The position numbers and the translations under genes were made by a program. From a virus, in UHGV virus genome UHGV-0179380: DNA of 54,525 nucleotides; one strand, written 5' to 3'. Below, piece by piece: positions 28,115-28,657 of this stretch. The first letter of the stretch is position 1, and each line of letters starts with the position of its first letter. A model generated the notes under the pieces. The model was not told the origin of the DNA. It searched no databases and saw only the letters and a list, made by a program, of their open reading frames with translations.

Positions 28115-28657
28115 TCACCCCCGTTTAAAGCTCATAACACGCGGTACAAGCGCTTCTTTTGCTTTCGGCTTACGTTTGCCTTTCTTCGCGGTTTTTTCTT
28201 CTTCCTTCGGCTGTTCTGCCTGTTCTAATGCCTGCTCAACGACTTCAGCCGCCTGCATTGCTGCAACCTGTGCTTCGTTTGATTCTGCCAGGATAGGGAA
28301 AAATGCATCAAAGATGCGGCCTACCATGTAAGCGTAAGTCTCATTCGCCGGGTGAGTTGGATCAGTGGTCGCCACGACGCCTACATCACTTAAAACGTGA
28401 AATGTCGTGTGCGCCGCTTCATGTACCAGCGTTCCTAACTCATTGTCGAATACTGCGATCACGTAGAAGTTACCGCCTTTCTCACCAGTGCAAGTAAGCG
28501 TCAATCCTCCTGCCAGTTCGAAATCAGGCTCAATTGGAATTCCTGCCTTTTCGCAAAATTCATAAAACATCTCGCGGGTCGGGCAAAAGAAAACGGTTGT
28601 ATGCTCAAAGAGCGGTACTTTGAATTGAGGCAATTTAATGCCTTTAGCCTTAGCCAT
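28115..28657 (-). CDS. HExxH-motif protein (possible zinc metallopeptidase) with basic C-terminal tail
   Basis: 180 aa; LVHEAAHTTFH; Lys-rich C-terminus; SD gagga; coupled to mini-ORF array. Confidence 0.6.
   Translation of the reverse strand: MAKAKGIKLPQFKVPLFEHTTVFFCPTREMFYEFCEKAGIPIEPDFELAGGLTLTCTGEKGGNFYVIAVFDNELGTLVHEAAHTTFHVLSDVGVVATTDPTHPANETYAYMVGRIFDAFFPILAESNEAQVAAMQAAEVVEQALEQAEQPKEEEKTAKKGKRKPKAKEALVPRVMSFKRG

Follow-up and report, generated by a model that had tools for sequence, protein, structure and literature searches.

What does a small protein with a HExxH motif do when its gene sits between the lysis cassette and terS of a coliphage? We ask this of a stretch of 54,525 nucleotides (nt) from UHGV virus genome UHGV-0179380 (the window, hereafter), in which a minus-strand gene, running from an ATG at 28657-28655 to a TGA at 28117-28115, encodes a protein of 180 amino acids (aa) with the sequence LVHEAAHTTFH at residues 77-87. 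An original prediction described the product as a putative peptidase that might form a functional unit with an array of mini open reading frames (ORFs) directly downstream, and the features it named (the 180-aa ORF, the LVHEAAHTTFH sequence, a Lys-rich tail, a 2-nt spacing and 11 mini-ORFs) are all present in the sequence. Our answer is that the gene quite probably encodes a cytoplasmic, late-expressed, stand-alone and minimal zinc metallopeptidase of the gluzincin type. This reading draws on an invariant HExxH...E set of residues, the 23-residue spacing within that set, the topology of AlphaFold2 (AF2) models, weak profile hints that point to metallopeptidases only, and selection on the protein.

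By sequence identity the window belongs to a mEpimmI-group coliphage, a temperate phage of E. coli: Escherichia phage MagusPhagus shares 97% identity with the region, and mEp044, mEp010, mEp554, mEp013 and mEp021 share about 90%. Passages of PMC11893012 describe the mEpimmI phages as Nus-dependent, non-lambdoid, temperate siphoviruses; the homolog of our gene is unmentioned in the passages searched, and the records of relatives label it 'hypothetical protein' (for example mEp021 gp49). Further homologs are MagusPhagus CDS0060, HkcC of P22 and HK620, and Orf129 of ST64T and L. A word-indexed search returns 122 matches, nearly all of them named E. coli proteins and more than 75% identical, and an exhaustive HMMER scan with residues 1-130 finds at least 150 homolog clusters at 50% identity. 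Most of these homologs are only 110-140 aa long, which indicates that the core is a free-standing domain and that the C-terminal ~55 residues are a lineage-specific addition; a single one of the 150 representatives exceeds 189 aa (P0257, 527 aa). The family corresponds to phrog_1365 in PHROGs, function unknown, which matches residues 1-131 (E 4.9e-30). Two public records carry a more telling label, 'PolyVal Metallopeptidase superfamily domain' for a 62%-identical homolog (P0118) and 'SprT-like family protein' for another (P0317), and the other homologs are 'hypothetical'. Sequence searches of Pfam, NCBIfam, PADLOC and the PDB with the protein itself return nothing significant, and Pfam, NCBIfam and PADLOC assign no family to other members either.

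Is the HExxH motif more than a coincidence of five residues? Conservation was counted in two alignments, of 81 and 108 members, in which the mean column identity is 17-18%. The only residues invariant in both are G51, H79, E80, H83 and E106. Since H79, E80, H83 and E106 are held at a mean column identity of 17%, the alignments tell us that HEAAH is not a chance HExxH, and among the 108 aligned homologs there is none that lacks it. Closer to the window, 53 related, mEpimmI-like phages carry 40 distinct alleles, in all of which HE[ACVI]AH and HPANETYAY are invariant; over these alleles the N-terminal core has a ratio of nonsynonymous to synonymous polymorphism (pN/pS) of 0.09.

In the predicted structure these residues fall on the helices expected of a zincin. 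AF2 models the full-length protein with a predicted local distance difference test score (pLDDT) of 90, and the core with a pLDDT of 95 and a predicted template modelling score (pTM) of 0.88. The modelled elements are strands at 11-13 and 21-25, a backing helix at 28-38, strands at 51-57 and 63-69, an active-site helix at 74-91 that contains H79-E80-x-x-H83, and a helix starting at 103-104, in the first turn of which lies E106, 23 residues after H83. As modelled, this order of elements (beta-beta-helix-beta-beta-HExxH helix-Glu helix) is that of the canonical zincin core. In the gluzincin signature HExxH...E, the two His and the downstream Glu bind zinc and the Glu of the motif acts as general base (PMC5512222), and both the spacing of 23 and the placement of the Glu at the opening of the next helix match the zincin core described there. 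We infer that H79, H83 and E106 would be ligands of one zinc site. The putative peptidase of the original prediction is thereby supported, by the family-wide invariance of HExxH and of the downstream Glu and by the zincin element order of the AF2 models. A test for a zincin or ImmA/IrrE-like fold had been proposed as a check, and its outcome is divided: the models have the zincin order, but the fold searches lend the assignment weak support, with unrelated folds scoring equally and no match below E 0.1 when Foldseek compares the model with the PDB.

Profile comparisons bear on which metallopeptidases the family resembles. The Pfam model most often weakly matched is SprT-like, in 11 of 81 members with a best E of 0.009; single members weakly match M76, M78, M50B-like, DUF4344 (a putative metallopeptidase), DA1-like and BSP; and in a PDB profile search the matches around the motif, at E 0.03-1, are to myroilysin, astacins and the virion RNA polymerase (vRNAP) of N4. 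The hints all lean weakly toward metallopeptidases, and none is significant. The best profile match, by hhalign of the family profile, is to the metallopeptidase (MPTase) region of N4 vRNAP, at a probability of 68% over 34 columns that comprise a strand and the HExxH. On this sequence evidence the closest detectable relatives are the MPTases of phage polyvalent proteins (Iyer et al. 2017, PMC5512222; N4 vRNAP aa 2130-2448, P1 DdrB and the ArdC C-terminal domain; PF18818), which are likewise phage-borne and likewise have a small beta-sheet and, after the HExxH helix, a helix with a Glu. The PF18818 model itself matches 0 of 81 members at E <= 0.1. There are differences too. The polyvalent MPTases are domains of giant multidomain proteins, whereas the present protein and its homologs stand alone at 110-190 aa, and the polyvalent proteins of PMC5512222 are packaged or transferred, whereas mEp021 gp49 carries no virion annotation. 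Among solved structures, the closest systems include the gluzincins of M3 (oligopeptidase A, 4ka8; neurolysin; Dcp) and M32, and the minimal zincin 3e11.

The ImmA/IrrE (M78) proteins, repressor-cleaving proteases of prophages and of integrative and conjugative elements, are likewise small HExxH metallopeptidases of mobile elements, and an ImmA/IrrE-like fold had been put forward as one to test for in our protein. That identity was rejected: one member of 81 matches PF06114, at E 0.099, and we see no repressor gene next to the gene in question, the neighbours of which are lysis genes, micro-peptide ORFs and terS. What the sequence profiles describe is a zincin/gluzincin family that is divergent, minimal and stand-alone, that no curated model covers and that is distinct from ImmA/IrrE.

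We now turn to where the family is found. With tblastn it is present in 81 phage records, among them two P22-like subgroups, Orf129 (ST64T, L, ST104 and epsilon34) at 45% identity and HkcC (P22 and HK620) at 35%, both over 90-96% of the core. These are true homologs that keep the HExxH and the Glu, in proteins of 121-129 aa that have no acidic linker, basic tail or micro-peptide array. The order of genes in ST64T is holin, endolysin, Rz, a hypothetical gene, Orf129, a 134-aa gene, terS and terL; the 134-aa gene is a head decoration protein by PHROGs, and we take it to be Dec of phage L. The slot of Orf129, between lysis genes and terS, is therefore the same as in the window, and the statement that no canonical phage family comes to mind at this position does not survive: ST64T, L, epsilon34 and ST104 all carry the homolog in the equivalent slot. 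As for P22 itself, the RefSeq record (NC_002371.2) has no coding sequence (CDS) for hkcC, and the match at 13861-14193 on the plus strand overlaps only the annotated sieA promoter; the ORF there is intact, at 121 aa with HExxH and Glu, and it is annotated in HK620 and other P22-like phages.

Outside these phages, similar neighbourhoods recur. The homolog is followed by a 149-aa gene, a Terminase_3 terL and a portal gene in one record (L098), and by three genes and then terL in another (L095); a P22-type portal gene comes directly after it in L097, the gene layout of L100, which includes a 766-aa gene, is alike, and in L107 terL lies about 1 kb downstream. A Paraburkholderia unamae contig (L091) has the homolog upstream of a portal gene. 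In a Burkholderia ambifaria prophage (L092) and a matching contig (L093) the order is homolog, HNH, PhageMetallopep, DUF2280 and terL. Here the homolog (L092 9122-9775; L093 7177-7830) stands a few genes 5' of an unrelated PF18894 putative metallopeptidase, which puts two different putative small metallopeptidase genes at the start of a single packaging module; hhalign of the family profile against the PF18894 'PhageMetallopep' protein gives a probability of 1.5%, unrelated at that level. The family is usually found at or just upstream of packaging genes (terS, terL or portal), a placement that is recurrent and not universal. A plasmid origin of the gene was also considered and rejected: homologs occur in only 8 plasmid-collection records, 6 of which are typed non-mobilizable, and their identities are as for the P22-like phage homologs.

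Several observations weigh against our interpretation. HkcC is listed as 'unknown function' in PMC2629481. P22 HkcC and P0128 are located away from packaging genes, hkcC in the ant/immI moron and not beside terS, P0128 in an early ERF/YqaJ/SSB region, and the packaging-side placement of the other homologs may merely reflect a module boundary that collects accessory genes. HExxH is also found in non-protease enzymes, and 2 of 10 members weakly match TIGR04267, an alpha-ketoglutarate (aKG)-HExxH hydroxylase model, at E 0.03-0.04. These matches are one argument for the alternative that the protein is not a peptidase at all and that its HExxH and Glu form a metal site for other chemistry (for instance that of an aKG/Fe HExxH peptide hydroxylase, or of another hydrolase) or matter for structure only; the fold searches, which are not decisive, are another. 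The TIGR04267 matches score 14 bits against a curated cut-off of 40 and cover the motif only, and membership in that family was rejected; moreover, the invariant H-E-x-x-H plus Glu and the order of secondary structure are those of a gluzincin, and the best structural and profile matches are to peptidases. We give the non-peptidase alternative very little chance.

How is the enzyme core, if such it is, extended in this lineage? In the acidic linker that follows the core, an indel of 14 aa sets the 180-aa alleles apart from those of 194 aa. The indel is an EQA(L/V)EQAE-like repeat, and the window together with loci L010-L056 has alleles of 180, 190 and 194 aa. Beyond the linker the protein turns strongly basic, with 9 K and 3 R in the last 31 residues (PKEEEKTAKKGKRKPKAKEALVPRVMSFKRG). 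The codons for the final K-R-G vary synonymously among phages (CGG GGG, CGA GGC, AGA GGG) with the amino acids unchanged, and pN/pS over the last 23 aa is 0.12, from which it follows that selection acts on the tail as protein, and not just on a ribosome-binding site for the gene that comes after it. An extension of at least 20 residues beyond the core is present in 13 of 108 members. Alleles of the mEp013 type carry a second tail variant, different in sequence and also basic, a protein of another lineage, P0121, ends in ...YKRG, and P0171 ends in ...RRG. The tail may act through its charge, to target the protein or to bind a partner, which could be nucleic acid, anionic membrane or another protein.

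The basic tail recalls the DNA-binding regions of DNA-dependent proteases. A protease of the SprT/Wss1 type would use such a tail to bind DNA and would strip bound or cross-linked proteins off concatemeric phage DNA before or during packaging, a role that would explain the place beside terS and terL. The SprT-like/Wss1/Spartan proteins (PF10263) are likewise small zincins, with the weak but recurrent similarity given above; in addition, one homolog is named 'SprT-like family protein' in its record, the Lys/Arg-rich tail is under selection, and the gene recurs next to terminase or portal genes. Yet the third ligand of SprT-like proteins is a conserved His where our protein has the invariant Glu106, and H87, at the SprT-type third His position, is not conserved family-wide. 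When hhalign sets the family profile against SprT of E. coli (YggI), the probability is 9%; no DNA-binding domain was detected, and in 95 of the 108 members any tail is shorter than 20 aa. Membership in PF10263 was rejected on the best E of 0.009 in 11 of 81 members together with the hhalign and H87 results, and we regard a DNA-clearing role of this type as very improbable.

A role for the protein in the virion, or as an injected protein, is disfavoured as well: mEp021 gp49 is annotated 'hypothetical protein', whereas gp41 of the same phage, detected by mass spectrometry (MS), is annotated 'virion structural protein'. In the passages of PMC11893012 that concern them, the main cluster contains all but 2 of the 16 structural genes identified by MS, and these two lie upstream of the lysis region. 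The annotation and the placement of MS-detected genes speak weakly against a packaged or injected protein, with the limit that low-abundance proteins could be missed.

We next consider the array, with which the gene was predicted to work as a unit. The two are certainly close. The first mini-ORF, which encodes 27 aa and is hydrophobic, begins with an ATG at 28112-28110, 2 nt (TT) after the TGA of the HExxH gene; its Shine-Dalgarno-like sequence GGGGGTGA (28122-28115) overlaps the last codons of that gene, so that the G-rich gene end CGG GGG TGA doubles as the Shine-Dalgarno of the first mini-ORF. Each micro-ORF product opens with a short acidic stretch, continues as a single hydrophobic helix and often ends in basic residues. 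In the 50 related loci where the whole interval from the peptidase gene to terS is available, it holds 3-13 cassettes; these come from about 21 peptide families, the order of which is fixed and the presence of which varies. All 16 of the 16 testable cassette families have an excess of third-position change, with pN/pS of 0.09-0.40 and 0.26 in total; judged by this pattern, purifying selection acts on the micro-peptides, and they are real genes. PHROGs has no entry for them, and the array DNA was found only in the mEpimmI phage group.

Does this closeness mean that the peptidase and the peptides work together? The peptidase might process, mature or degrade the single-pass micro-peptides, or be anchored by them, with translational coupling to set the stoichiometry. 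The two are adjacent in all 53 mEpimmI-like loci examined, with the TGA-TT-ATG joint kept in 50 of them; the peptides are real genes in the sense just given; and the basic tail, which could bind an anionic membrane, is limited to the lineage that bears the array and to a few relatives (P0118, P0121). On the other side, small hydrophobic ORFs are missing downstream of the homolog in all 41 loci from outside the mEpimmI group, and the first peptide after the joint varies by phage (families c17, c10, c13, c05, c04, c16, c20 and c23), as does the number of cassettes. Nor is tightness specific to this pair: nowhere else in the array does the gap between ORFs exceed 14 nt, and where there is no gap the ORFs overlap, twice as ATGA; a second TGATTATG joint is among these junctions. 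In P22-like phages the homolog overlaps the start of whichever gene comes next, dec in most loci. In mEp013 (L004 2254-2739), where the tail also differs, a gene for an HNH endonuclease of the homing type (a 161-aa ORF with a record note of Gp2.8/Gp7.7-like) separates the HExxH gene, whose last bases it overlaps, from the array, and beyond it the AAACGAGGCTGATTATG joint appears once more. Finally, peptides of 22-32 aa have no obvious leader to remove. We consider it unlikely that the peptidase acts on, or is held by, the peptides.

Of the predicted coupling, then, the 2-nt adjacency and the joint stand, and the functional unit, in the form given, is not supported. The simplest reading is that the peptidase gene and terS are conserved and flank a variable slot, prone to recombination, which the array fills. 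A partnership of peptidase and peptides confined to this lineage, in which tail and array co-occur, strikes us as decidedly unlikely. So does a late membrane-directed system, in which the tail would bring the zincin to the inner membrane, where it would act with or on the shuffling single-pass micro-proteins: we hold this to be quite improbable. Such a system may, for example, set the time of lysis, keep out superinfecting phages or disable a host defence that is bound to the membrane, with the TGA-TT-ATG joint as the docking point for cassette exchange, and, if true, a membrane-directed peptidase with micro-peptides would be a previously undescribed phage module around a minimal protease. The micro-peptide array is a stranger object than the peptidase and worth a study of its own.

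Returning to the stand-alone peptidase, we summarise the coordinates of the locus in Table 1. The gene has a late-operon position: upstream on the minus strand lie the holin, endolysin and Rz/Rz1 genes (ORFs of the window, named from the annotation of relatives), and downstream, past the array, lie terS (26689-27174, minus strand) and then terL. The N-terminus (MAKAKGIKLPQ...) is not hydrophobic, and on inspection of the sequence there is no obvious signal peptide or transmembrane segment. Just 5' of the gene is a terminator-like hairpin, the folding energy of which is no better than that of shuffled sequence; at the equivalent site the records of mEp021 and mEp013 mark a rho-independent terminator. 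A hairpin at this point implies that transcripts of the lysis genes run on into the packaging genes by antitermination. The gap between Rz and the HExxH gene measures about 340 nt (28658-28995, minus strand), and MagusPhagus annotates two tiny ORFs there, of 96 and 108 nt. Within the Rz-like spanin gene (28995-29483, minus strand) an Rz1-like ORF is embedded out of frame (29063-29275, minus strand; listed at 70 aa); it has a lipobox-like LSGC and is rich in Pro in its C-terminal part.

Table 1. Coordinates of the HExxH gene, its predicted parts and adjoining features in the window.
Feature	Position	Strand	Basis
CDS of the HExxH protein, 180 aa	28115..28657	minus	ORF list; phrog_1365, E 4.9e-30; 'hypothetical protein' in relatives
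Core domain, aa 1-125, predicted minimal zincin fold	28283..28657	minus	AF2; homologs cover only aa 1-125; pN/pS 0.09
HEAAH motif (H79, E80, H83), predicted zinc ligands and general base	28409..28423	minus	invariant in 81 and in 108 homologs
H102-P-A-N-E106, E106 the predicted third zinc ligand	28340..28354	minus	family-wide invariance of E106
Acidic helical linker, ~aa 126-148, prolonging the Glu helix	28214..28282	minus	full-length model, helix 104-148
Basic C-terminal tail, aa 149-180, ending ALVPRVMSFKRG, predicted non-helical	28118..28213	minus	no helix or strand assigned; block pLDDT 69-75
Junction GGGGG-TGA-TT-ATG: stop of the HExxH gene, Shine-Dalgarno and start of the first mini-ORF	28110..28122	minus	sequence; kept in 50/53 related loci
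The 11 mini-ORFs of the array, of 22-32 aa and with a single strongly hydrophobic stretch each	27185..28112	minus	sequence; reaches terS at 27174
Shine-Dalgarno GAGGA of the HExxH gene	28666..28670	minus	sequence; 8 nt 5' of start
Terminator-like hairpin, 8-bp stem and U-run (UUAUAUUUUU)	28679..28713	minus	fold

How, then, would the enzyme work? In the mechanism that we propose, H79 and H83 on the active-site helix and E106 at the start of the next helix would together hold one Zn2+, a substrate strand would dock on the edge strand of the small beta-sheet, and E80 would activate a water molecule for cleavage of the peptide bond. The peptidase would act in the cytoplasm, late in infection, and its substrate would most likely be a host or phage protein and not the downstream micro-peptides. 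In mEpimmI phages the basic tail that follows the acidic helix would serve to target the enzyme or to bind a partner.

For a family so far 'hypothetical', this amounts to a testable prediction, that of a zinc peptidase of about 120 aa with named catalytic residues; it is a useful prediction of function for a common phage gene and no surprise to the specialist. The family occurs in model phages (hkcC of P22 and HK620, orf129 of L and ST64T) as well as in prophages of Enterobacterales and Burkholderiales, and in the mEpimmI phages the peptidase gene is now set apart from the micro-peptide array next to it. If active, the protein would be among the smallest zincin scaffolds, and the recurrent place of its gene at the head of the packaging module, together with its probable late expression, points to a late proteolytic step that may have gone unrecognised in these phages.
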